DNA of 64,000 bases. Source: Pseudomonadota bacterium (GTDB lineage Bacteria; Desulfobacterota; Binatia; Binatales; Binataceae). The stretch is taken from NCBI GenBank assembly GCA_021324855.1, contig JAJPIG010000011.1:130877-194876 (forward strand), read 5' to 3'. A program made the translations under genes and the position numbers. The notes below the pieces were generated by a model, which did not search any database, was not told the origin of the DNA, and saw only the letters and a list, made by a program, of their open reading frames with translations. Below, piece after piece: positions 8,407-61,188 of the stretch. Within the stretch, counting starts at the first letter, position 1; every line of letters begins with the position of its first letter.

Positions 8407-8655
8407 ATGGCACAAACCATGGCTTCTGAAGACGAAATATTCACCATCAAGGAACTCTCCGAACATCTGCGCGTCCATCCGACAACCATCTATCGCCTCC
8501 TGAGACAGGGTCGATTGCCCGGCTTTCGCGTCGGCAGCAACTGGCGCTTCAGCCGCGAAGCGATCGAGCAATGGGAGCGCGATCAAGCCGGTCGATCGTC
8601 GGGCGTCTCGCGGCGCGGACAGCATAAAAAAGCGCGCGCGGCGGCTCCGAATTGA
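8407..8655 (+). CDS. excisionase-family helix-turn-helix DNA-binding protein
   Basis: IKELSEHLRVHPTTIYRLLRQGRLPGFRVGSNWRFSREAIEQW matches the excisionase/MerR-like HTH (TIGR01764-type) pattern. Confidence 0.7.
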   Translation: MAQTMASEDEIFTIKELSEHLRVHPTTIYRLLRQGRLPGFRVGSNWRFSREAIEQWERDQAGRSSGVSRRGQHKKARAAAPN

Positions 8656-9715: not shown

Positions 9716-10537
9716 TTACCTCCCAAACGGTGCCCAGATTGTTCCCCGCTTCGGCGAGAGAAATTCGTCGATGGGCGTGTCTCTCTTCTCGACCACCGCC
9801 ACGAACGGATACAGATGTACCGACCGCACGGCCGATTGAAACGCAGTCGCCGTGCAGACCAGCCGTCGATCCTGGTTGTCGAAATTCCGTTCCCATCGCT
9901 GGCTCGCATTTAGATTACTCGCGAATCCGTAGATATATGCTGCGAATCTGTTGTGGGCGAAGTGGAGATCCTCGCATAGATAGACGCCGCCTGCCCGCAA
10001 GTGTGGAAGCAGTTCCTCGAATGTGGCTATCTGCTGTTCGCTCTGATGCCCCCCATCGTCGATGACGATATCGAGCTCTGGTACATCCTTTTTGAACTGT
10101 CTCCAAAACCCGCGGTCGGCCTGATCACCAATGAAAACCTTGATTGAACCGTCCTCGTAGGCCTTGCAGGCCGGTTCGATGTCGACGCCGTAGATCCTGG
10201 CTTTTGGACCGAAATACTCCCTCCACATTTCGAGACTGCCGCCGCTGTAAATCCCGATTTCAAGGATATGAACTTCCCTTCCCCGAAATCGGCTGAAGTG
10301 CCTGTCATAAATGTCGAAGTAGTGTTTCCACTTCCAGATTCCATGCCCTTCCTTACGGGCCTCGAAAAACTTCTCCAGATCGCTCTGCTCGGCTTGTGGC
10401 CCTTTCGTCCCTGAACGGCAGGGCCAGAGCTTTGAACGGCGCCAGTTCGAATAGCCGCGCCGGAACGAATTCATCTGTGGCACGGCCGACGCGAGCCGCC
10501 TAAAGGGTCTTGTCACCTTTCTAAACATCAATTGCAC
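9716..10537 (-). CDS. class I SAM-dependent methyltransferase (CmcI/TylF-like fold)
   Basis: Gly-rich motif I (ILEIGIYSGGSLEMW), acidic motif (IVIDDGGH), WKWKHYFDIYDRHF N-terminal segment. Confidence 0.6.
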   Translation of the reverse strand: MQLMFRKVTRPFRRLASAVPQMNSFRRGYSNWRRSKLWPCRSGTKGPQAEQSDLEKFFEARKEGHGIWKWKHYFDIYDRHFSRFRGREVHILEIGIYSGGSLEMWREYFGPKARIYGVDIEPACKAYEDGSIKVFIGDQADRGFWRQFKKDVPELDIVIDDGGHQSEQQIATFEELLPHLRAGGVYLCEDLHFAHNRFAAYIYGFASNLNASQRWERNFDNQDRRLVCTATAFQSAVRSVHLYPFVAVVEKRDTPIDEFLSPKRGTIWAPFGR

Positions 10538-10698
10538 CGAAGAAAATCTCGCGCCTCGAAGCTCCGGGGCGCGGCCGTAAGGATCGCATGAGGTTCTCGC
10601 CGAGTGTCTAAAAAAAACGGTGGCGGGTGCGAAACATTTGCTAACATGGGTACTTTCAAGATCATTTCTGGCGTACGCGCGCTAAGCGCAATGGCGCA

Positions 10699-10909: not shown

Positions 10910-11146
10910 ATGAGAATTCACGCGGGCGCCAGCGCCGTCACACGCCTTCAGGATCAAGCGGCAGCATCTGGTGCTGCAGGCCGAAACTGCCGGGGAAAAC
11001 TGTGGGCTAATCTCGTTGGTGTTGGCTGTATTTGCGGCCTCTTCGCTCACTTACGCGGACATCACACATACGTGCATGATCCCGACGGCCGCCTGGTGGG
11101 CGTCATCGATGCGTCAGGAAACGTAGTGACATACGTTGGGAACTGA
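10910..11146 (+). CDS. YD-repeat (RHS-like) fragment ORF ending exactly at the junction with toxin-module copy 1
   Basis: Strong RBS GGAGGAGG before the ATG. C-terminus HTYVHDPDGRLVGVIDASGNVVTYVGN matches the YD-repeat consensus. A TGA stop falls at the first bases of the conserved block. Confidence 0.4.
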   Translation: MRIHAGASAVTRLQDQAAASGAAGRNCRGKLWANLVGVGCICGLFAHLRGHHTYVHDPDGRLVGVIDASGNVVTYVGN

Positions 11147-11250
11147 AGTATCCGGGCGGACGGCCGGCGGCTCAGGGAGCGACCACCGGCCAATACCCGG
11201 AATGGGCGCCGGGGCAGGAACCGCTGGCGGGGCGGGTTATGTTGGTGGGC
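11133..11250 (+). repeat. conserved ~115-nt block, copy 1 (encodes RWELKYPGGRPAAQGATTGQYPEWAPGQEPLAGRVMLVG)
   Basis: Near-identical at nucleotide level to 12207..12320 and 13390..13507. Confidence 0.8.
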
Positions 11251-11550
11251 GATTATTCAACCCCGGGGGCGACTGCAAATTCGACGCCCCGGCCGCAGAC
11301 GTCTTCTCCGACACCATCCCCAACGGCCCGCTCCGGAAGCCGCTTTTCGAAGGCGTTCAGCGTATGCATAGCCAACGCGCTCGCTGGCCCATTGATTATT
11401 CCTCCGATAGTCTGCGGGGCGAGCGGATACGCATGCGCCCAGGGTTTTGGGATTGCTGAACCAGCTTGCCAAGTAGCAATACCATTTTGCACTGCGACGA
11501 TCGCAACCATCGGTGCATGCGCGACAGGCGTCGGGACGCCTGAGTTCTAG
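11239..11550 (+). CDS. polymorphic-toxin-like C-terminal module, copy 1 (Ser/Thr/Pro-rich linker plus hydrophobic Cys-containing tail); reading frame extends upstream to ~11125, out of frame with the YD ORF
   Basis: Frame-1 translation ...IRWELKYPGGRPAAQGATTGQYPEWAPGQEPLAGRVMLVGDYSTPGATANSTPRPQTSSPTPSPTARSG...CIANALAGPLIIPPIVCGASGYACAQGFGIAEPACQVAIPFCTATIATIGACATGVGTPEF. The track start is only the first in-frame Met. Confidence 0.4.
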   Translation: MLVGDYSTPGATANSTPRPQTSSPTPSPTARSGSRFSKAFSVCIANALAGPLIIPPIVCGASGYACAQGFGIAEPACQVAIPFCTATIATIGACATGVGTPEF

Positions 11551-11586
11551 AGATGTTATGAGAAGCCGTATCATGAGGCTCCATTT

Positions 11587-11964
11587 ATGCAGAATGTAAA
11601 CCTAACAAAGGGGACTCGAAGAACGATTAAAATCGCAATCTGCGCGATACTGATCGCGCAGGTATTAGGAAACATATGCTTATGGTATTTGAAAGCGGGG
11701 CCTGGCAACATGCGAATAGACCCGCGCCTGATTTTCTTGATTTTGCCCGGAATGATTTATTTGATGTGCACAAACGTACCATATGTGCTCGAAAGCTCGG
11801 AGGGCATTAAGCGTCAGGCCATTCATTACGCGAACTGGGCGCTGGCGTTCGGAATCTGGCAATTCTTAGCGCCGATTGGGCAGAGCGCTCTGGTCGCGCT
11901 CTTCGCAGTTGGTGTAGTGATAATGGTGCTTTCTGTGAAAGATGCTATTCGGGTCGAAGCATAG
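11587..11964 (+). CDS. small polytopic membrane protein (putative cognate immunity protein for module 1)
   Basis: ~4 predicted TM helices (IKIAICAILIAQVLGNICLWYL, LIFLILPGMIYLMC, WALAFGIWQFLAPIG, ALVALFAVGVVIMVL). Lower GC. Sits immediately 3' of module 1. Confidence 0.45.
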   Translation: MQNVNLTKGTRRTIKIAICAILIAQVLGNICLWYLKAGPGNMRIDPRLIFLILPGMIYLMCTNVPYVLESSEGIKRQAIHYANWALAFGIWQFLAPIGQSALVALFAVGVVIMVLSVKDAIRVEA

Positions 11965-12011
11965 CCCTGCTTAAGCGGCCATCCCGGTTGGAACCGTTGG
12001 GTTAGCGACCT

Positions 12012-12611
12012 GTGTCGCGGGCACCGCGGGCCGTGGCGGGATCCGACTTCATCGCTTCTCTGATCGCCGCTGACTTTACCGTGGGCATGATCGATCCGGC
12101 CGATCTGATTCCGGCCGCGGCGATCGCCGAGGCTCTCTATGAGATTGCCGACCTGTTCGGGCCTCGATCTGATCGGCGGCGGCCATCCGTACATTCCGCC
12201 GATTACACGTTGGGAACTGAAGCATCCGGGCGGACGGCGGCTCGGGGAGCGACCACCGGCCAATCCCCGGAATGGGCGCCGGGGCAGGAACCGTCGGCAG
12301 GCCGGGTTATGTTGGTTGGCCAGGTTTTCACCACCGCCCCGTATGCCCCATGCCAAGGCGAATGGATACCTCGGCGCCCCCCGGAAGCGTTAGGCTGGGC
12401 AGGCACCGGTACCGGGAGAGGGGAGGAGCCTGCCAATGGGGATGTGGGTTGTAGACAGTTCTGGGGATGCCGCAACTGTGATGACTGCTCCTTTGACTTA
12501 TACTCTGGGACAGGTCCATGGACGATTGGAAGGGGCGATGGCTGTGTAGCCGCTCCGGCCAGCCCGCAGAAGGGTTGTCCTGATATGAAGTTTTGGCGAG
12601 GACATAGATAG
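12012..12611 (+). CDS. polymorphic-toxin-like protein, copy 2 (conserved N-terminal region plus Cys-rich C-terminal domain)
   Basis: N-terminal IAADFTVGMIDPADLIPAAAIAEALYEIADLFG, the conserved block, then the variable tail CQGEWIP...VGCRQFWGCRNCDDCSFDLYSG...QKGCPD. The internal segment is in a shifted frame relative to copy 3 (+1 then -4 nt). Confidence 0.5.
   Translation: MSRAPRAVAGSDFIASLIAADFTVGMIDPADLIPAAAIAEALYEIADLFGPRSDRRRPSVHSADYTLGTEASGRTAARGATTGQSPEWAPGQEPSAGRVMLVGQVFTTAPYAPCQGEWIPRRPPEALGWAGTGTGRGEEPANGDVGCRQFWGCRNCDDCSFDLYSGTGPWTIGRGDGCVAAPASPQKGCPDMKFWRGHR
12207..12320 (+). repeat. conserved ~115-nt block, copy 2 (4 nt shorter)
   Basis: Nucleotide-level near-identity to copies 1 and 3. 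Confidence 0.8.
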
Positions 12612-12625
12612 GGGGCACACGGACC

Positions 12626-13165
12626 GTGAGAATTCTACGGGCTAAAGTCTATTTCCTTTTAATTTTAATTTTTCTTATAAGTACGATCGGCGCTGAGCAG
12701 CGACCCGCTGATGCTGCTCAACGTCCGAGCGCTCTGTTGCTTTATCCCAAGGCATCAAACGTCTCGTCCGGACGGAATGGAAACGACCTCACTTATCACG
12801 TCAATGTTAAGTATCCTGCCTCCGATTTTATCGGCTGGATTTCCAACAGGTTACAGGAGTTAGGCTGGGAGCCCCTTAAGGAGGATTTCCTGAACCCGGG
12901 CCTTCCAACATCTCAAGTAAGAGGCTGGTTGGAGTTCGTCGATGAGCGCAAAAAGCCTGAATTGATTCATCAATGGATCGGCGATTGGAAGGACTCCTCC
13001 GGAAACATCGTACGTTATGCACTTCGGTACAGGAAGCCCGGATATGGTACTTCCGACTTGACTGATTTGGAGGTGATAGCTTCGTACGATTCGGCCTCGA
13101 CTGTGCGCAAGCTACAGCGGAGCGTCGAACGATTCAAAGAGACTCAACAGCGATCCCCTCACTAA
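12626..13165 (+). CDS. secreted protein with signal peptide (putative immunity protein A)
   Basis: N-terminal signal peptide (VYFLLILIFLISTIGA). ~45% identical to the 13833..14339 product (shared FLNPGLPTSQVRGW and DWKDSSGNIVRYA). AT-rich start. Sits immediately 3' of module 2. Confidence 0.5.
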   Translation: MRILRAKVYFLLILIFLISTIGAEQRPADAAQRPSALLLYPKASNVSSGRNGNDLTYHVNVKYPASDFIGWISNRLQELGWEPLKEDFLNPGLPTSQVRGWLEFVDERKKPELIHQWIGDWKDSSGNIVRYALRYRKPGYGTSDLTDLEVIASYDSASTVRKLQRSVERFKETQQRSPH

Positions 13166-13168
13166 CCC

Positions 13169-13801
13169 TTGCTCAAGCGGAGCTTCGTCACCGTGGGCGA
13201 CGGCGCCGCCGCAGGCATGGAGGCGTGTAATGCATTCATCGCCGCTGATCTGGCGTTCGGCGATACGAATCCCGGCACCGCGTTGCCGGCTTGGGCGGTG
13301 GCGGCGATCGCAGAGGCAATTTATGGGATTGCCGACCTGTTCGGCCTCGATCTGTTCGGCGGCGGCCATCCGTACATTCCGCCGATCATACGTTGGGAGA
13401 TAAAGCATCCGGGCGGACGGCCGGCGGCTCAGGGAGCGACCACCGGCCAATACCCGGAATGGGCGCCGGGGCAGGAACCGCTGGCGGGGCGGATCATGTT
13501 GGTGGGCGTGAATGATTGTGGCGGCGAATGGGTGAATACAAAGTCTCGCGACAGTTTGGTCATCTGCTCCCCCAACTATGGCTGCGCGACTCTCGGGTGT
13601 CTTTGTTACTGGGGGTGTCGAGAGTGCGACGGCTCCTTTGACCTATACTCTGGGGACGTAGAGTCCGGGAACGGGCCCACCACGCGAGGCATACCGCTGG
13701 GCAATGGTGGTTGCTCTTGCTTGAATTATCCGGGTCCACAGCAAGGTTGCCAAAAGAATAACCCGCCTGGTCCTGGTATTTGGCGCCGCCGAAACCCTTA
13801 G
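13169..13801 (+). CDS. polymorphic-toxin-like protein, copy 3 (intact frame)
   Basis: AADLAFGDTNPGTALPAWAVAAIAEAIYGIADLFGLDLFGGGHPYIPPIIRWEIKHPGGRPAAQGATTGQYPEWAPGQEPLAGRIMLVG followed by the Cys-rich tail CGGEWVN...CLCYWGCRECDGSFDLYSG...QQGCQK. Confidence 0.55.
   Translation: MLKRSFVTVGDGAAAGMEACNAFIAADLAFGDTNPGTALPAWAVAAIAEAIYGIADLFGLDLFGGGHPYIPPIIRWEIKHPGGRPAAQGATTGQYPEWAPGQEPLAGRIMLVGVNDCGGEWVNTKSRDSLVICSPNYGCATLGCLCYWGCRECDGSFDLYSGDVESGNGPTTRGIPLGNGGCSCLNYPGPQQGCQKNNPPGPGIWRRRNP
13390..13507 (+). repeat. conserved ~115-nt block, copy 3
   Basis: Nucleotide-level near-identity to copies 1 and 2. Confidence 0.8.
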
Positions 13802-13832
13802 ATTTGATGGCCAGGGCGTTAGGAGTATCAAT

Positions 13833-14339
13833 ATGGCGGTTCGAGGCAAGATTTTCGCGGTCTGGGCTATAATTGGTTTAGTCTTGATTCAGGTACATTT
13901 TGTCTACACGCGCGAATATCCTGAAGCACTGCTTGAGTACCCTAGCGCTAAGGCTGCGAAATATAGCGAGGTCGAGGGCAAAACACAGCTTGACTACTTC
14001 TTGGACACCAAGTTTCCCGCTTCAGGGGTGATTGGCTGGGTTTCCGATCACCTTAAGGATGCCGGATGGAAACCACTCACGCATGATTTTCTGAATCCGA
14101 CATTACCCTCATCTCAGGTACAGGGTTGGCGTCACTTCATAGACGGAAGAGGAAAACACGATATCTGCGTTCATGCCTGGACGGGGGACTGGACGGACGC
14201 CTCCGGGAATGTTGTCACGTATGCTTTTATATACCGGACCGTTGATTGTAGCACTTCACATTTGACCAATCTTGAAGTGTTGGTCGTATATTATCCTGCG
14301 CAAACTGCAGAGCAATTCAGAAAGCTCGGAGGCGGATAG
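13833..14339 (+). CDS. secreted protein with signal peptide (putative immunity protein B), paralog of 12626..13165
   Basis: Signal peptide (IFAVWAIIGLVLIQV). Shares FLNPTLPSSQVQGW and DWTDASGNVVTYA with immunity A. Sits immediately 3' of module 3. Confidence 0.5.
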   Translation: MAVRGKIFAVWAIIGLVLIQVHFVYTREYPEALLEYPSAKAAKYSEVEGKTQLDYFLDTKFPASGVIGWVSDHLKDAGWKPLTHDFLNPTLPSSQVQGWRHFIDGRGKHDICVHAWTGDWTDASGNVVTYAFIYRTVDCSTSHLTNLEVLVVYYPAQTAEQFRKLGGG

Positions 14340-14383
14340 CGGCCCGCGGGCTCAGCCCTGCCTCAGCCTGGCCAGCCGAAGAA

Positions 14384-14500
14384 CTCATCGCCGCCGATCT
14401 GACGTTCGGCGATACCAATCCCGGCACGGCGTTACCGGCTTGGACGGTGGCGGCGATCGCCGAGGCCATCTATGGGAGTGCCGACCTGTTCGGGCCTCGA
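14384..14500 (+). pseudogene. truncated fourth copy of the toxin-module N-terminal region
   Basis: ELIAADLTFGDTNPGTALPAWTVAAIAEAIYGSADLFG matches the copy-3 N-terminus at nucleotide level. It carries the copy-2-type variant ttcgggcctcgatctgatcg, then diverges and terminates. Confidence 0.45.
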
Positions 14501-14619
14501 TCTGATCGCAGCCCCCCGCATCGCACGGTTCTTTGCCCTCGCCCAAATTGGGGGAGGCTGAGGGCGCCTGAAGGTCCGATTGACATATGCCCTCTGAGGT
14601 GCGGTGATTTGAGCGGCGC

Positions 14620-15711
14620 ATGATGGCGGGGCCAACCAAAGAATTGCTCATGGTCGGGAGCGTGCCGCTCGATACGGCGGAGGAAGTGATGCGCGCGCTC
14701 GCTGAAAAGCTGGGCCCATCGCTCGATTGCTTCCCCGACGGCGAGGTCGGCGAGCGTCATCGATGGATCACGTTCCAGGCCTATCGCGTGATGCACGGTC
14801 ATCCTGAGATCGAGACGCTCACCCGGCCTGCACCGATCAACGGGGTCGAAAGCTGGCGTCCCCGTGACATCCACGATTACTGGAGCTTCCGCGTTCGTCC
14901 CGGAGTCGAGCGCGTGCGCTTCGGCGATCCCGGATGGCGGCTCGGCTACGCGCACGACGCGGCCAATTCCTATTTTGTCTTCAAGACGCTCCGCGCGCAG
15001 GGCGTGATTCCCGCCGCCGCGCGCTTCCAGGTCTGCATCCCATTGCCGCTGAGCGTGCTGTATCTCCAGTTTCGCGATCCCGCGGATTGGGATCGCGTGG
15101 GGCCGGGCTACGAAGCCGCGATGCGTGACGAGATCGCGACTATCGTGCGGCAGATTCCCGCGCGCGACCTCGCGATCCAATGGGATTGCGCGAGCGAGAT
15201 GGTCGACCTTGAAAATTTCCTGCCGTGGACGCCGGGCGAAGGCAAGCTCGAGCGGCTCGTTGGGGAGATCGAACGGCTCAGGATGAGCGCGATTCCCGAG
15301 GACGTCTGGCTCGGGCTCCATCTCTGCTACGGCACGCTCGGCGGATGGCCGATGGTGATGCCCAAGGATTTCGGGCTCTGTGTTCAGGTCGCCAACGCGG
15401 CGGCCGCGGTTGCCGGACGCCGATTCGATTTCATCCATATGCCGGGGCCGGCGAATCGCTTCGACGACGATTTCTATCGGCCGCTCAGCGATTTGAAGAT
15501 ACCCGGCGCGCGCATCTACCTCGGCATGATTCACGATCACGAGCAGGACGCGGAGCCGCTGCGCCGGCGGATCGAGGTGGCGCGGCGTTATCTCCCGGAA
15601 TTCGGACTCGGCGCGCCGTGCGGCTTCGGTCGCCGCAAGCGCGAGGAGATTCCGCGCGCCTTGGAAGCGCATCGTGTCGCCGCGGAAACCTTGCGCGCAT
15701 CGCAAGCCTGA
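14620..15711 (+). CDS. MetE C-terminal-domain-like (UroD/MetE superfamily) putative Zn-dependent methyltransferase, paralog of 50080..51138
   Basis: Motif order resembles cobalamin-independent methionine synthase: DLAIQWD (cf. IQIDE), LHLCYGT (cf. HMCYS His/Cys Zn ligands), C-terminal GAPCGFGRR (cf. PDCGLKTR). Clear paralogy with the 50080 gene. Confidence 0.5.
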   Translation: MMAGPTKELLMVGSVPLDTAEEVMRALAEKLGPSLDCFPDGEVGERHRWITFQAYRVMHGHPEIETLTRPAPINGVESWRPRDIHDYWSFRVRPGVERVRFGDPGWRLGYAHDAANSYFVFKTLRAQGVIPAAARFQVCIPLPLSVLYLQFRDPADWDRVGPGYEAAMRDEIATIVRQIPARDLAIQWDCASEMVDLENFLPWTPGEGKLERLVGEIERLRMSAIPEDVWLGLHLCYGTLGGWPMVMPKDFGLCVQVANAAAAVAGRRFDFIHMPGPANRFDDDFYRPLSDLKIPGARIYLGMIHDHEQDAEPLRRRIEVARRYLPEFGLGAPCGFGRRKREEIPRALEAHRVAAETLRASQA

Positions 15712-29783: not shown

Positions 29784-30908
29784 TTATACAATCCGCTTCT
29801 GGCCGTGCTTGAAGCCGCCCTGCTCGCCGATCGCTGGCTCACGGCTGCGCTCCTCCCGTCCCCGTTCGCGATCACGGCCGCGTTCGCGAGAACCGCTTTC
29901 ACGGGGTAGGGGCGCTCCGCCGCCGACCGGACTGATCTCGATCGATCGCAGGTAACCCTCGCCCTGTGAGCGCGTGGTTATGAGCGGATCATCCCTCAGG
30001 GCCAAATGCACGATGCGCCGGTCGCGTGGCGGCATCGGATCGAGCTTGACGGTCGCGTGCTCGCGCTTGGCCTGCTCGCCCTTCGACAGCGCCATCCGAT
30101 GAATCTGATTGCGGCGGCGGGCTCGATACGATTCGGTATCGAGCACGATCGTCGCTGCTTCCCTGACGCGGCGTGCAAGGATGCGATTTACGATGTATTC
30201 GAGCGCATCGAGGGTCTGGCCGTGGCGTCCAATAAGGATTCCGGAGCCGTCGCCCTTGATTTGCAGTTCGATGCACTCGGGATCGTGCTCGCCCTCGGTG
30301 ATCTCACCTTTCTCGCCCATCAGGTCGAGGATACTGCGCAGGATGTCTGTCGCTTCGCGGGTCTGCTCGGCGCGATCCTCGATGCGGCGCATGTCCGGCC
30401 CCTGGTTTTCGGCCTCGGCCGCATCGTTTCCAGTTGCGGCGGCGCGGGGCTGAGGCGGTTCGCCACGCGGGGCGTGCCCCTCGCGCGGCGGACGATCTTC
30501 GCGGCGCGGTCGATCATCCCGCGACGGCCGTTCGCCGCGTGAGCGCTGTCGCTCTTCGCGCTGCGGCCGCGATCGTTGCGGCTCGGGACGATCTTCGGCG
30601 ACCGGGGCCGGCGGTGACGTCGCTGTCTGCTCTTCGCGCCGACGCATCGGCGCGTGGCGCATCGGCTCGGTCCGCGAGGGCGGTGGAGCGGGTGGCGGCG
30701 AAGTGACCGTGCTGCTCGCGGCCTCGGCCGGACGGCGCGTGACTCGCACGCGCGCCTGGCGCGCGCCGAGTCCCAGCACGCCCGAGCGCGGCGTGCTCAG
30801 CACCTCGATAATCACGTCATCTTCATGGGCGCCGAGTTCTTCGAGCGCCTGCCGGATCGCAGCCTCGACGGTAGCAGCGGTCTGTTCGGTCGAAATCCTG
30901 GTGCTCAT
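29784..30908 (-). CDS. khpB: RNA-binding protein Jag/KhpB (Jag_N plus KH plus R3H)
   Basis: KH (ILIGRHGQTLDALEYIV) and R3H (RRIVHLALRDDP) domains. Conserved position 3' of yidC. Long Arg/Pro/Glu-rich linker. Confidence 0.75.
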   Translation of the reverse strand: MSTRISTEQTAATVEAAIRQALEELGAHEDDVIIEVLSTPRSGVLGLGARQARVRVTRRPAEAASSTVTSPPPAPPPSRTEPMRHAPMRRREEQTATSPPAPVAEDRPEPQRSRPQREERQRSRGERPSRDDRPRREDRPPREGHAPRGEPPQPRAAATGNDAAEAENQGPDMRRIEDRAEQTREATDILRSILDLMGEKGEITEGEHDPECIELQIKGDGSGILIGRHGQTLDALEYIVNRILARRVREAATIVLDTESYRARRRNQIHRMALSKGEQAKREHATVKLDPMPPRDRRIVHLALRDDPLITTRSQGEGYLRSIEISPVGGGAPLPRESGSRERGRDRERGREERSREPAIGEQGGFKHGQKRIV

Positions 30909-32563
30909 GCGGTTGCTGGTGGAGTCTGTCGAAATTCGTAGTTAAGGAACACTTGCTGGAGAATGCCCAGCACGTTCGATGACAGATAATAGAGCGTCAG
31001 GCCGGCGGGCAGGCTAATGAAGATAAGGCTGAAGATCACCGGCATGTACATCATCATCTTTTGCTGATTCGGATCCGGCTGCTTGGGCGAGAGCCACTGC
31101 TGCAGCAACGATGTCGCGGCCAGCAGGATGACCAGCACGGGGATGCCGTGCAGGTTGGTCATCGGTATCGCGGGCATTCCAGGTATCGTCAGGCAGTCGG
31201 GCGCCGACAGGTCGTGAATCCAGCCGATGAACGGCGCCTGGCGGAGTTCAAACGCGTTCAAAAACGCCTCATACAGGCCGTACAGGATCGGAAGCTGAAT
31301 CGCCATCGGCAGGCATCCGCCGAGCGGGTTGACATGATTGCGCTTGTAAAGATCGACCATCTCGCGGTTCAGCCGCTCCTGGTCATTTTTGAACTTTTCA
31401 CGGATGCGCTCGACCTGCGGCTGGAGCCGCTGCATCCGCATCATTGAGCGCTGCCCCTTGATCGACATCGGCAGCGTCGCGAGCCGCACCACAATTGTCA
31501 GCAGGATGATAGCAACCCCGTAGTTCGGCAAAAAGTGGTAGAAAAGCTGGAGCGCCCGCAGCAACGGCAGCGCGATCACGCCGAGGAGGCCGAAATCGAT
31601 CGCCTTTGAAAGCGCGGGATTCACGCCCTCCAGGATGTTGAGCTGTTTTGGCCCAAAGTAGGCGTCGGTCCTGAGATGCGTCGCATGGTCGAACAGCAGG
31701 CGGGCGTGGGCTTGGTCCGCGCTGTAGGTCATCACCAACGTGCCCGCGCGCGGGTCGATCGGAAGATACGCCGATAGGAAGTACCGATCGCCGAAGCCGG
31801 CGTAGGTGATAACGCCGCTCGCGGTCGCGCTCGCCTTTTCCAGTTGCTTTTCGCTCTCGGTCAGCGCCTTGCCCTGGACGTCGGCCTGAAGCTCCGGGAT
31901 GTCGCGATAACCGCTACCGCGTGTCGCCAGCGACTGGCTCATGCTGAACCCGGATTGCGACACGCCGCCCGCTGCGCCGTCGAGGGTGACATCGAGATTG
32001 AAGACATAGCTGTCACCGAACGTAACGCGCTTCGTTACTTCGAGGCCGTCACGAGTCTTTGCGGTGAGCACCAGCGTTACCGGCTCAACGCCATTGGCTT
32101 TGATTTCCGATGGCGCGTCGGCCGTATAGATCAGTCCCGAATCGGTAAGCGTCGTTCCGCCACGATTCACGACCAGTCCGAGGGGCAGCCGCGCTCCCGG
32201 CCCGTCGCGGACCATCTGATACCATGGACTCCCGGGTGTGGCGGTCTCGCGATACTGCTTGAGCCGCAGACTTTTGAGGCGCCCGCCCTGCGTTGTTACG
32301 ATCGCATCGTAGAGCCGGCTCTCGATTTCGATATCGCGCGCCGTCGCCGGGGTCGCATTCACCAGCGAGTTCGCGATGAGCTGCGGAATCGACGCGGTCG
32401 CTGGGGCGCTCGCGCTCCCTTGAGCCGTCGCGGCGCTGGGAGAGGCGCTGCTTTCGGTCTGTTGATTCGGATGCGGCGGATAGAGCCGCTTAAGCACCAG
32501 CTCCTGGTAGGCGAAGATCAGCACCACCGAGAGCATCACAACGATCAATAGCCGGGTATCCAA
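30905..32563 (-). CDS. yidC: membrane protein insertase YidC
   Basis: N-terminal TM, large periplasmic domain, and the C-terminal 5-TM core with LPILYGLY / IFSLIFISLPAGLTLYY. Confidence 0.85.
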   Translation of the reverse strand: MDTRLLIVVMLSVVLIFAYQELVLKRLYPPHPNQQTESSASPSAATAQGSASAPATASIPQLIANSLVNATPATARDIEIESRLYDAIVTTQGGRLKSLRLKQYRETATPGSPWYQMVRDGPGARLPLGLVVNRGGTTLTDSGLIYTADAPSEIKANGVEPVTLVLTAKTRDGLEVTKRVTFGDSYVFNLDVTLDGAAGGVSQSGFSMSQSLATRGSGYRDIPELQADVQGKALTESEKQLEKASATASGVITYAGFGDRYFLSAYLPIDPRAGTLVMTYSADQAHARLLFDHATHLRTDAYFGPKQLNILEGVNPALSKAIDFGLLGVIALPLLRALQLFYHFLPNYGVAIILLTIVVRLATLPMSIKGQRSMMRMQRLQPQVERIREKFKNDQERLNREMVDLYKRNHVNPLGGCLPMAIQLPILYGLYEAFLNAFELRQAPFIGWIHDLSAPDCLTIPGMPAIPMTNLHGIPVLVILLAATSLLQQWLSPKQPDPNQQKMMMYMPVIFSLIFISLPAGLTLYYLSSNVLGILQQVFLNYEFRQTPPATA

Positions 32564-36491: not shown

Positions 36492-38363
36492 ATGCGCTAC
36501 GACGTGATAGTGGTCGGCGCCGGCCACGCCGGCATCGAGGCAGCGCTCGCAGCGGCCCGGATGGGTGCAGCGACGCTGATGCTCACGCTCAACCTCGATC
36601 ATATCGGCCAGATGTCGTGCAATCCGGCGATCGGTGGAATCGGAAAAGGCCACCTGGTGCGGGAAATTGACGCGCTCGGCGGCGAAATGGGTCTCGCTAT
36701 CGACGAGACCGGAATTCAGTTCCGCTTTTTGAATACGCGCAAGGGACCGGCCGTGCGCGCCCGCCGTGCGCAGGCCGACAAGGCTGCCTATCGGTCGCGG
36801 ATGAAGCGCGTGCTCGAGCGTACGTCCAACCTTAGCATCCGGCAGGCCTCGGTCGAGCGGCTGATCGTGGAGGACGGCGCGGTGCGTGGCGTCGAATCGC
36901 AAATCGGTGAAGTTTTTCAAGCGCCGGCAGTGATCCTGACCACCGGTACGTTCTTAAAAGGTCTCGTACATGTCGGATTGAAAAATTATCCGGCCGGGCG
37001 GGCCGGCGATTTCGCCGCGATGGGGCTAAGCGCACATCTGGCGGAGCTCGGCTTTCGTATCGGGCGGCTCAAGACCGGGACCTGTCCCCGCCTCGATGCG
37101 CGGACGATTGATTACTCCGAGCTCGAACTCCAACCTGGTGACGATCCGCCACCTCCGTTTTCGTTTCGGACCAGAGAGATTGATTGTGCGCAGCTTCCGT
37201 GTCATCTGACGTATACCAACGCTCGCACGCATGAGATCATCCGTGGCGGGATCGATCGTTCGCCGATGTACTCGGGCGTGATCACCAGTCGCGGCCCGCG
37301 CTACTGCCCGTCGATCGAAGACAAGGTGATGCGCTTTCGCGACAAGGAAAGGCATCAGATTTTCCTTGAGCCTGAAGGGCGCGACACGGTCGAGGTTTAT
37401 CCCAACGGCTTGTCGACCAGCCTGCCCCTCGATGTGCAGATCGCGATGGTTCGCTCGATAAAAGGGCTTGAAAAGGCCGAGATAATGCGACCCGGCTACG
37501 CGATCGAATATGATTTTTCCGATCCACGCCAGCTTCGGCCGTCGCTCGAGACGCAGCTCGTCTCCGGCCTGTTCTTCGCTGGTCAGATCAACGGCACCAC
37601 TGGCTACGAGGAGGCCGGCGCACAGGGGCTGATGGCCGGAATCAACGCGACCTTGAAGCTTCGTGGCGAAACTCCACTCGTGCTCCGCCGCGACCAGGGG
37701 TACATCGGGGTGATGATCGACGATCTGGTGACGCGCGGGATCGGCGGTGAGCCGTATCGCATGTTCACCTCGCGCGCCGAGTATCGCCTGACGTTGCGCG
37801 AGGACAATGCCGACCGGCGGCTTTCGCCGATCGGTGAACGGCTGGGCCTGCTAGATTCGGAAGCGAGCGCGCGAGTAGCAGAGAAGACGGCCGCCGTCAC
37901 AGAAGAAATAGAACGACTTTCTGAAATTATTATCGATGCAAATAATGAGGTAAATCAGGAGCTTACGACGCTCGGCACGTCGCCGATCACGCAGTCCGTT
38001 CGTGCGATAGAATTGCTGCGGCGACCTGAGGTTTCGTATGCCGCGCTGATGCGAATGGCGAATCGAGCGTCGACGCTCGAGGTCGATCAGGCGGCAGAGC
38101 TTGAGGTTGAAATCAAGTACGATGGCTACGTGCGCCGGCAGTTGGAGTCGATCGAGCGGTTTCGAAGACTCGAAAATACCGTGATTCCAGAATGGTTCGA
38201 CTACGGGCGGGTGCTCGGGCTTTCAACCGAGGTCCGGGAACGGCTCAACGCAACCAGACCCGGGTCGCTCGGTCAGGCCGCTCGGATGCCGGGAATCACG
38301 CCAGCGGCGCTTTCAATTCTAGCGGTACATCTGAGGAGTGGCGATGGTGGCAGAGCGGCATAG
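36492..38363 (+). CDS. mnmG: tRNA uridine-5-carboxymethylaminomethyl(34) synthesis enzyme MnmG
   Basis: FAD-binding DVIVVGAGHAG and the full GidA architecture. Confidence 0.9.
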   Translation: MRYDVIVVGAGHAGIEAALAAARMGAATLMLTLNLDHIGQMSCNPAIGGIGKGHLVREIDALGGEMGLAIDETGIQFRFLNTRKGPAVRARRAQADKAAYRSRMKRVLERTSNLSIRQASVERLIVEDGAVRGVESQIGEVFQAPAVILTTGTFLKGLVHVGLKNYPAGRAGDFAAMGLSAHLAELGFRIGRLKTGTCPRLDARTIDYSELELQPGDDPPPPFSFRTREIDCAQLPCHLTYTNARTHEIIRGGIDRSPMYSGVITSRGPRYCPSIEDKVMRFRDKERHQIFLEPEGRDTVEVYPNGLSTSLPLDVQIAMVRSIKGLEKAEIMRPGYAIEYDFSDPRQLRPSLETQLVSGLFFAGQINGTTGYEEAGAQGLMAGINATLKLRGETPLVLRRDQGYIGVMIDDLVTRGIGGEPYRMFTSRAEYRLTLREDNADRRLSPIGERLGLLDSEASARVAEKTAAVTEEIERLSEIIIDANNEVNQELTTLGTSPITQSVRAIELLRRPEVSYAALMRMANRASTLEVDQAAELEVEIKYDGYVRRQLESIERFRRLENTVIPEWFDYGRVLGLSTEVRERLNATRPGSLGQAARMPGITPAALSILAVHLRSGDGGRAA

Positions 38364-59817: not shown

Positions 59818-61188
59818 ATGGACGGATTATGGGAAAAAACCTCGGGAAGGGTGCGTGACAAGCTAGGACAGGTCGGATACGAGACTTGGATCTGCCCGCT
59901 GAACTTCCTTGGCCTGAAGGGAAGAACCGCGGTCATCGAAGCGCCCAATCGGTTTTTCCGCGATTGGGTGCAGGATCGCTATTTCGACGTGCTCCGCGGA
60001 TCGCTCGCTGCAGAAGTGGGTGAGGATCTCGAGCTCAAGATCACCGTATCCGAGCATAACGGCAACGGTAATGGGAACGGTTCTGCGCCCGCGGTCGCCA
60101 CAGCGCGGCCACCGCGGAACGACCGTGCTGAAGAACGGCGCGATCGCATGACGCCCAATCATCTGAACTCGCGTTATACTTTCGCTGAATTCGTCGTCGG
60201 CTCCGGCAACCAGTTCGCTCACGCTGCGGCGCAGGCGGTCGCCACGATGCCGGGCGAGAAATACAATCCGCTCTTCATCTACGGCGGGGTTGGTCTCGGC
60301 AAGACTCACCTTGTGAGCGCGATCGGTCACCATGTTATCGCCACCGGGGGCGGCCGCCGCAAGGTGCTGTTTATGCCGGCAGAAGTTTTCATGAACGAAC
60401 TCATCAGCTCGCTCCGACGCGACAAGATGGGCGAATTCAAGGACCGTTTCCGCCGCGTGGACATGTTGATCCTTGATGATGTTCAGTTCCTGGCGGGACG
60501 CGAGCGAACTCAGGAGGAATTTTTTCACACTTTCAATTCACTTCATTCCGAGCGCCACCAGATTGTACTCACTTCGGACAAGGTTCCACGCGACATTCCG
60601 GAGCTTGAAGAGCGGCTGCGGAACCGTTTCGAATCGGGATTGATCGCTGATATTTCGCCGCCCGACCTCGAGACGCGCGTGGCGATAGTGCAGAAAAAGG
60701 CAGTCCTCGAAAACCTTGACTTGGCGCCGGACGTCACTCTGTATATCGCGCAGAACGTTTCATCGAACGTGCGTGAGCTTGAGGGATGTCTGACGCGGCT
60801 CGCGGCGCTCGCATCGATCAACAAGACCCTTATCACCGTCGACTTTGCACGCGAGGCGTTGCGCGACCTGATTCGCGACCACGATTTGAAGCCGGATATC
60901 GAAGCGATTCAGAAGGCGGTGGCGGACTTCTTCCACATCCGGCTTGCGGATCTTAAATCCAAGAAACGGACGCAACACATCGCCTTCTGCCGACAGGTCG
61001 CGATGTATTTATGCCGCAAGCTGACTGAAAGCTCATTCCCAACCATCGGTGAGTCTTTCGGCCGCGACCACTCGACGGTCATCCACGCCTACAACCTGAT
61101 TGCGCGGCGCGTTTCGAACGATTCAGCGTTTCGCAATTCGATCGATCGAATCGCCCGCGAGCTCAAGGTCATGAGCCGTGCGGCATAA
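59818..61188 (+). CDS. dnaA: chromosomal replication initiator DnaA
   Basis: Domain I, a Gly-Asn-rich linker, AAA+ ([10 protein letters not shown], Walker B DDVQF), domain IV. RBS GGAGGGGG. Confidence 0.95.

Follow-up and report, generated by a model that had tools for sequence, protein, structure and literature searches.

Orphan toxin/immunity cassettes in a probable decayed RHS polymorphic-toxin island

In a 64-kb window, by which we mean the whole stretch of DNA analysed (64,000 nucleotides of contig JAJPIG010000011.1), four tandem units that share one conserved block lie on the + strand between 10.9 and 14.5 kb. We interpret this array as a decayed RHS (YD-repeat) polymorphic-toxin island with orphan toxin/immunity cassettes, and assign this reading a probability of roughly 0.8. 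A first-pass annotation of the same DNA had proposed an orphan toxin-immunity array of RHS type, and this proposal is now supported by relatives of the tails and of the block that are fused to RHS cores, and by tail-immunity pairs at six loci. Judged by their sequences, the cargo, linker and immunity families are rare and unnamed in the libraries searched, although the locus type itself is well known. The most economical reading of the locus seems to be an RHS island from which the weapon has gone while the shields remain.

Cassette structure and decay of the array

The array begins with a stub open reading frame (ORF) of 78 codons (10910-11146, +), apparently the remnant of a YD-repeat/RHS delivery gene, which has a strong Shine-Dalgarno sequence (AGGAGGAGG) and a single terminal YD repeat (HTYVHDPDGRLVGVIDASGNVVTY) that scores 18.4 bits against TIGR01643 (cut-off 15.8) and 20 bits against Pfam RHS_repeat (E 9.5e-4), just under the cut-off of 22 for the latter. 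One base out of frame with the stub lies module 1 (11134-11550, +), in which only the 3' 39 codons of the conserved block, here termed the pre-toxin block, are kept as copy 1 (11134-11250; RWELKYPGGRPAAQGATTGQYPEWAPGQEPLAGRVMLVG; 95% DNA identity to copy 3). Tail 1 (11251-11550) consists of a Pro/Thr/Ser-rich linker and then a hydrophobic, Gly/Ala-rich stretch of ~60 amino acids (aa) with six cysteines, and is followed by imm1 (11587-11964, +), encoding 125 aa with 3-4 predicted transmembrane (TM) helices, with GAGG 5' of its ATG. Module 2 (~12060-12611, +) combines a damaged block (copy 2, 12060-12320) with a Cys-rich tail (tail 2, 12321-12611) that keeps all six cysteines invariant in its family; its partner, imm2 (12626-13165, +), encodes an exported protein of 179 aa bearing a signal sequence at its N-terminus. 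The ORF of module 3 opens at 13169, directly 3' of the imm2 stop and in the same frame, and the module itself (13235-13801, +) comprises an intact block (copy 3, 13235-13507) and an intact Cys-rich tail (tail 3, 13508-13801; C.G.W ... C.C.WGC..C.G..DLY ... C ... GC). The gene that follows it, imm3 (13833-14339, +; AGGAG Shine-Dalgarno sequence), encodes 168 aa with an N-terminal signal anchor and belongs to one family with imm2. Module 4, or block copy 4 (14384-14508, +), is a 5' fragment only of ~125 nucleotides (nt; LIAADLTFGDTNPGTALPAWTVAAIAEAIYGSADLFG), the homology of which ends at 14508. Each complete unit is thus followed by a small gene for an exported or membrane protein, as the first-pass annotation had described; its coordinates for the four tandem units, with the YD stub out of frame to module 1, were all confirmed. 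It had also counted both modules 2 and 3 as complete, which has to be corrected: module 2 carries two indels, and only module 3 is intact.

Comparison of the modules with one another revealed an abrupt boundary inside each unit. Over the 90 nt 5' of the block/tail junction, modules 1 and 3 are 93-100% identical and pairs that include module 2 are 76-96% identical; just 3' of the junction, identity between module pairs is 13-43%, a sharp drop that reads as a cassette-exchange signature. The conserved block has no copy elsewhere in the window. Furthermore, a 27-nt exact repeat and a 44-nt degenerate pattern each occur three times, with every copy inside the locus, against an expectation of 0 in 100 shuffles.

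Lesions were identified at several points of the array. At the junction between the stub and module 1 (~11134), the short string ATACG is common to both and is followed by a remnant of the block (RWELKYPGG...AGRVMLVG), and the join looks like an illegitimate deletion junction. Compared with module 3, module 2 has gained an extra G (+1) near 12160 and lost 4 nt near 12234; between these indels, where the true frame covers 12163-12234 (LDLIGGGHPYIPPITRWELKHPGG), ~24 codons are misread in the wrong frame, among them those of GGGHPYIPP..RWE.KHPGG, the most strongly conserved motif of the block. Module 4 has the +1 G in common with module 2 and is a mosaic, being 91% identical to module 3 in the part 5' of that G and then 91% identical to module 2. 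The copies of the block have therefore recombined with one another. We compared the window with six fetched contig loci (five distinct contigs), taken from assemblies in ENA (2 samples), JGI (2 samples) and Logan; wherever they overlap the locus, identity is 100%, and the agreement extends to the stub junction and to both indels of module 2. Since these independent assemblies agree with the window, the lesions are not assembly artefacts. A 43.5-kb JGI contig also encodes a 202-aa variant of module 3 (P0052). In an alternative frame of the stub (10971-11126, +), a signal-peptide-like stretch (LISLVLAVFAASSLTYA) lies just 5' of the YD repeat, and could be either the frameshifted, Sec-exported N-terminus of a lost RHS protein or a product of chance.

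In agreement with the first-pass annotation, which had found no delivery gene in the window, our profile and six-frame scans detected no RHS core, other YD repeat, PAAR, VgrG or type VI secretion system (T6SS) gene across the 64 kb, and no full-length shell gene matching TIGR03696. Because the shell gene is deleted, module 2 frameshifted and module 4 truncated, toxins are not deliverable from this locus, which looks offensively dead with its three immunity genes intact. The ORFs of imm1, imm2 and imm3 are complete and have Shine-Dalgarno-like sequences, that of imm2 being weak, and it is probably through these genes only that the locus functions now. In a scan for promoters and terminators, the region gave no more candidates than shuffled sequence, and no promoter on the + strand.

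Relatives of the tails, the block and the immunity-like proteins

Tails 2 and 3 are 40% identical and constitute one family. Each conserved region had earlier been thought to precede a different C-terminal domain; this holds for tail 1, which is distinct, and fails for tails 2 and 3, which are homologous. An alignment of nine tails defined a domain of ~85 aa in which six cysteines, G6, W8, W35, D45 and L46 are invariant (C.G.W ... C...W.C..C....DL ... C ... C). Exhaustive HMMER searching of 1.84 billion cluster representatives with a module profile matched 14 proteins, and word-indexed searches of 5.8 billion proteins matched only self and P0002 with a module query, and P0044 only with a tail profile. 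In proteins P0042 and P0045, the Cys-rich tail occurs directly after a complete Rhs_assc_core domain that ends in DPLGL or DPFGL (DPxGL); positions 1-76 of the 76 in TIGR03696 are matched by both (E 1.9e-24 and 9.5e-19, respectively), as well as by the RHS gene of locus L008 (E 1e-19). A diverged block together with a Cys-rich tail was found in P0039, P0047 and P0049, and the block with other tails in P0038 and P0043. In locus L013, an 871-codon YD-repeat ORF (TIGR01643 E 1.3e-23) leads through a Gly-rich hydrophobic linker into a Cys-rich tail, and an imm homologue follows. The inability of the first-pass annotation to name a toxin, pretoxin or immunity family was shared by our own searches: modules 1-3 gave no significant family in Pfam, NCBIfam, PADLOC or PHROGs, neither module 1 nor the profiles of the tail and of imm drew a meaningful match from PDB sequences, and imm2 and imm3 had no sequence match in Pfam, NCBIfam, PADLOC, PHROGs or PDB.

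Based on six-frame hidden Markov model (HMM) scans of all fetched loci, we identified seven pairs, at six loci, in which a Cys-rich tail lies directly 5' of a homologue of imm2/imm3: the window (twice), L008, L013, L021, L029 and L030/L031. The tail of L008 is frameshifted and terminates an RHS gene in which the TIGR03696 domain is complete; that of L030/L031 follows a canonical NLYAYVGDDPVNATDPLGL core end; in L021 the pair is found within a long orphan array, and in L029 the tail that precedes the imm homologue is diverged and joined to a YD fragment. The RHS array of L007 contains two imm homologues, but of a tail only a remnant. The identity of imm2 to imm3 (42%), set beside that of their tails, fits what is expected for co-diverging cognate pairs. 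Likewise, paired imm copies within one locus are 34-52% identical and form long scattered branches in a neighbour-joining tree, a divergence that fits cognate co-diversification. No PAAR, VgrG or Eag context was present in the window, and none was seen 5' of the RHS genes of L013 or L008 (10-kb flanks). L013 has the only near-full-length RHS gene that carries the Cys-rich tail, and the imm homologue after it (9875-10507) is split into two frames (9875-10276 and 10280-10507) and is apparently frameshifted. A gene with a P-loop (GATGAGKS) at 7792-8891 of L021, by eye similar to TraG/VirD4-type coupling proteins, adjoins the end of that array and hints at a location beside a conjugative element.

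The peptide encoded by the block follows the layout ..AIAEAIYGIADLFG..GGGHPYIPP..RWE.KHPGG..AGR.M, and forms a Gly-rich/hydrophobic linker. Among 241 million metagenome records, a scan recovered the block at only four loci: the present locus and three others, which, like L001, come from a related soil organism. In the arrays of this organism each orphan still has part of an RHS core end (…YYKPGRYYSPLMGRPL…), followed by a Gly-rich stretch, the block (…GEINPGTALPAAVVAAIAETVFEVLDLFGVFGGGHPYIPP…) and a variable tail. The partial core end matches TIGR03696 over positions 1-47 of 76 only (E ~3e-3; P0002/L001 and L023), and core-end sequence resembling that of P0002 and L023 was seen by eye in L022 and L025; the block comes after the core end in P0002, L022, L023 and L025. 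Because the core end precedes and variable tails succeed the block in these related arrays, the block is best described, from sequence context, as a linker that connects interchangeable cargo to an atypical RHS core end. The orphans of the window keep only its distal ~270 nt. In block-bearing RHS proteins the DPxGL self-cleavage motif is replaced by the Gly-rich/hydrophobic linker. TIGR03696 has no match in L013 or P0038, and the L013 linker gives a sub-threshold glycine-zipper match.

Other cargo of these arrays bears on where the Cys-rich tails may act. The block-linked tail of L022 (2-787) is a Pfam 3D domain (E 9.7e-10), which we take to be a cell-wall (peptidoglycan)-lytic family. At L031 (3-554), a tail with a CCELHDLCY motif resembling phospholipase A2 (PLA2; CCxxHDxCY, by eye) is followed by a multi-TM ORF, and an ORF at 12560-13816 of L013 has weak PLA2 matches in Pfam. 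The 3D, PLA2-like and weak-PLA2 cargo would all appear to be of envelope-acting types. Given an exported partner, six invariant cysteines and the envelope-attacking cargo resident in the same arrays, the site of action of tails 2 and 3 is probably the periplasm or envelope, and the Cys-rich tails are most likely a small disulfide-rich domain acting outside the cytoplasm. We infer the toxicity of the tails, their site of action, neutralisation by binding, the order in which the locus decayed and its present-day expression.

The family of imm2 and imm3 is rare: a profile recovered 34 relatives among 5.8 billion proteins, and a genome scan with a 10-sequence alignment, covering one genome per species, found 10 loci in Candidatus Binatus, 'delta proteobacterium' metagenome-assembled genomes and Armatimonadota. 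In the alignment of 34 sequences, which includes four fragments without the N-terminus, the N-terminal segment is hydrophobic in most full-length members, and a lipobox-like L-x-x-C occurs in several. An AlphaFold2 model of imm3 (mean predicted local distance difference test, pLDDT, 87.5) shows a Mog1/PsbP/DcrB-like fold and matches DcrB, PA1624 and PsbP, with a sequence identity to members of the fold of 8-17%; Tsi3 is absent from its top 60 structural matches. With this structural similarity found for the model, imm2 and imm3 are both predicted to adopt the Mog1/PsbP/DcrB-like fold.

Tail 1, a hydrophobic, Cys/Gly/Ala-rich peptide, is most likely membrane-damaging and would be countered by the multi-pass imm1, a proposal made by analogy. 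Its sole candidate relative is the tail of P0038, with a weak pairwise E of 0.004 and five cysteines aligned; a tblastn comparison with all fetched loci revealed no relative of the stub, tail 1 or imm1. Homology of tail 1 to the L023 tail, and of imm1 to the TM protein of L023, was considered and dropped, the similarity being insignificant, and what is left is an analogy. For imm1, only a far sub-threshold NCBIfam match was detected (E 0.0097, 15 bits against a cut-off of 270). The two are paired by adjacency only, and imm1 is a candidate immunity protein for tail 1.

Competing explanations

Several observations weigh against a decayed RHS island with cognate immunity genes. The stub has one YD repeat only, with marginal scores, and for this reason we only infer that it is the 5' end of a former main gene. 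Moreover, 10 of the 17 loci with an imm homologue have no RHS gene or tail within ~10 kb; at L005/L015, L009/L011, L014, L016, L010 and L012 the homologue lies at ~10000-10600 without RHS nearby. The gene order H+-PPase–imm is conserved in L009/L011, L014 and L016, and the order PrmC–imm–EPSP synthase in L010 and L012. Because such RHS-free loci exist, several of them in conserved housekeeping synteny, the imm family is not exclusively one of immunity proteins. Syntenic imm copies are 68-95% identical; at the conserved housekeeping positions, imm copies of 68-72% identity stand beside neighbours of 76-97%. These housekeeping-position copies may be orphan immunity genes that became fixed in the core genome, or may represent a housekeeping ancestor of the family; orphan immunity genes apart from toxins are a known phenomenon (PMC10539506).

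The alternative that survives best regards the array as an offensive reserve, in which an intact YD-repeat/RHS gene with the same block elsewhere in the genome would acquire tail 1, 2 or 3 through homologous recombination at the block, above all at the 27-nt exact repeat beside the tails, as has been described in enterobacteria for orphan rhs/cdi modules that recombine onto an intact gene. The module 3 ORF is indeed intact, tails 2 and 3 both retain the full set of invariant cysteines, and the mosaic copies of the block indicate that modules have recombined (modules 1 and 3 being 95% identical). The 27-nt perfect repeat lies 3' of the module 2 lesions, and recombination there would therefore bypass them. 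However, the adjacent main gene is destroyed, the remainder of the 64-kb window contains no RHS, PAAR, VgrG or other YD-repeat gene, no full-length parent was recovered near the source organism, and the block is extremely rare, with 4 loci in 241 million metagenome records, the present one included. We therefore consider a reserve unlikely, though well short of negligible.

The RHS-free loci and conserved gene orders described above, together with a fold like that of the lipoprotein DcrB, could also be taken to mean that imm2 and imm3 are housekeeping envelope lipoproteins and the Cys-rich tails non-toxic secreted cargo with a role in, for instance, adhesion or signalling. Such an interpretation has to contend with seven independent pairs in which imm lies directly 3' of a Cys-rich tail, and with the greater divergence of paired copies (34-52% identity) than of syntenic ones (68-95%), which is the pattern expected of cognate immunity genes. 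Given also that the same arrays carry 3D-domain and PLA2-like tails, and that immunity genes separated from their toxins are known (PMC10539506), we judge it improbable.

Expression of the orphan toxins from internal starts, such that they act in the producer and form toxin-antitoxin modules with their partners, has a precedent in Salmonella orphan rhs (PMC7043789), and module 3 does have a possible GTG start at 13193 with GGAG 12 nt upstream. A module 3 product started internally would lack a signal peptide, whereas the partners are exported or membrane-bound; the six invariant cysteines point to an oxidising compartment, and no + strand promoter was found in the region, all of which renders this option very improbable. 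That the repeats and lesions are artefacts of metagenome assembly or chance similarities is scarcely credible: repeats do often break or mis-join metagenome assemblies, and one ENA contig ends inside the array, but the six fetched contig loci are 100% identical to the window where they overlap the locus, with the stub junction and both module 2 indels reproduced, and 0 repeats are expected in shuffles. Two further assignments were rejected, namely an anti-phage defence system, with no PADLOC match, and membership of the CDI (contact-dependent inhibition)/WapA systems, the defining repeats and motifs of which are missing; the modules have no Pfam or NCBIfam match at E <= 1, and their translations lack the VENN motif.

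We thus return to the decayed RHS island. In its ancestral state, a YD-repeat shell gene would have continued into the pre-toxin block and tail 1, followed by imm1, with displaced orphan cassettes located 3', each with its own tail and immunity gene and with part of the block left as a handle for recombination. Tails 2 and 3 would have been neutralised through binding by the exported imm2 and imm3, with their predicted Mog1/PsbP/DcrB-like fold. A deletion may then have removed the shell and left an early YD repeat abutting block copy 1 out of frame, while module 2 would have gained its two indels and module 4 been truncated. The three immunity genes would probably still protect the cell against relatives carrying the same toxins. 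If a parent gene is present elsewhere in the genome, module 3, as well as tails reached through the 27-nt repeat, could serve as recombination donors.

Known systems, genomic setting and significance

The membrane-permeabilising toxins CdiA-CT of Escherichia coli EC93 and, from T6SS, Tse4 and Ssp6 have multi-pass immunity proteins (CdiI, Tsi4 and Sip6, respectively). Tail 1, with its six cysteines, and imm1, with its 3-4 TM helices, resemble these pairs in composition and layout only, with no detectable homology. CDI (cdiBAI) loci and WapA orphan arrays follow the same logic of handle, tail and immunity gene; unlike CDI, the present locus has no VENN motif, filamentous-haemagglutinin repeats or CdiB, and its relatives are fused to YD-repeat/RHS cores.

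The closest counterparts in organisation are the main and orphan rhs loci of the enterobacteria Salmonella, Serratia and E. coli (PMC7043789, PMC10539506), which have, as here, a conserved 5' segment with an abrupt switch to a variable tail, a small cognate gene after each tail, tandem orphans without the delivery part, and orphan immunity genes that are kept. In contrast to those loci, the main gene is here reduced to a 78-codon stub, the handle is a Gly-rich/hydrophobic linker block and not the canonical DPxGL core end, and there is no T6SS, PAAR or VgrG context; the host is probably an uncultured, Binatota-like soil bacterium. An exported immunity protein is common to our locus and to Tse3-Tsi3 of the Pseudomonas aeruginosa T6SS, and periplasmic Tsi3 has been reported to have a beta-sandwich resembling Mog1/PsbP (PMC3792639). 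The two systems share no sequence similarity, and the putative toxin here is a Cys-rich domain of ~85 aa, not a muramidase. Similarly, the relation to DcrB, PA1624 and the DUF1795 Eag chaperones (SciW, PA0094) is one of fold only, at 8-17% identity and with no sequence match. Eag chaperones are cytoplasmic and encoded 5' of the effector gene, whereas imm2 and imm3 are exported and encoded 3' of the toxin.

With yidC (30905-32563), mnmG/gidA (36492-38363) and dnaA (59818-61188) all present, the window adjoins the chromosomal replication origin. An HTH_17/excisionase-like gene (8407-8655, +; Pfam E 2.5e-16, and PHROG excisionase families) is located 2.3 kb 5' of the array. The G+C content is 54-58% over 8-14 kb (62% at 9-10 kb), compared with ~62-65% in most of the flanks, and the array region may have been acquired horizontally as an island. 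Neither an integrase gene nor a tRNA gene was detected in the window. A 363-aa ORF (14620-15711, +) lies 3' of module 4 and has no Pfam, PADLOC or PHROGs match, and is overlapped on the opposite strand by a 411-codon ORF that is probably an artefact of high G+C.

A wider hypothesis can be framed, which we regard as distinctly doubtful. In it, block-bearing YD-repeat proteins would be a separate RHS lineage of Binatota-like soil bacteria, in which the DPxGL core end has been replaced by the Gly-rich/hydrophobic linker and envelope-only cargo (3D, PLA2-like, Cys-rich tail and hydrophobic peptides) would be delivered by a non-T6SS route. The Cys-rich tail would be a new toxin fold, and the immunity family would have been recruited from, or fixed as, a core periplasmic DcrB-like lipoprotein that is maybe the physiological target of the toxin or a decoy for it.

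The locus does not overturn current understanding. It does bring to light three families absent from Pfam, NCBIfam, PADLOC and PHROGs, namely the Cys-rich tail, its exported Mog1/PsbP-fold partner and the pre-toxin linker block, in an uncultured soil lineage with undescribed interbacterial weaponry; our literature search turned up nothing relevant on Rhs or secretion systems in Binatota. Being small, without a fold match and probably envelope-acting, the Cys-rich tail is a tractable candidate for revealing a new antibacterial target. The locus further represents an end-state of rhs decay, in which the weapon is gone and the shields are kept. In related genomes the immunity family is fixed at housekeeping positions, which is relevant to the way in which immunity genes persist after their toxins are lost.

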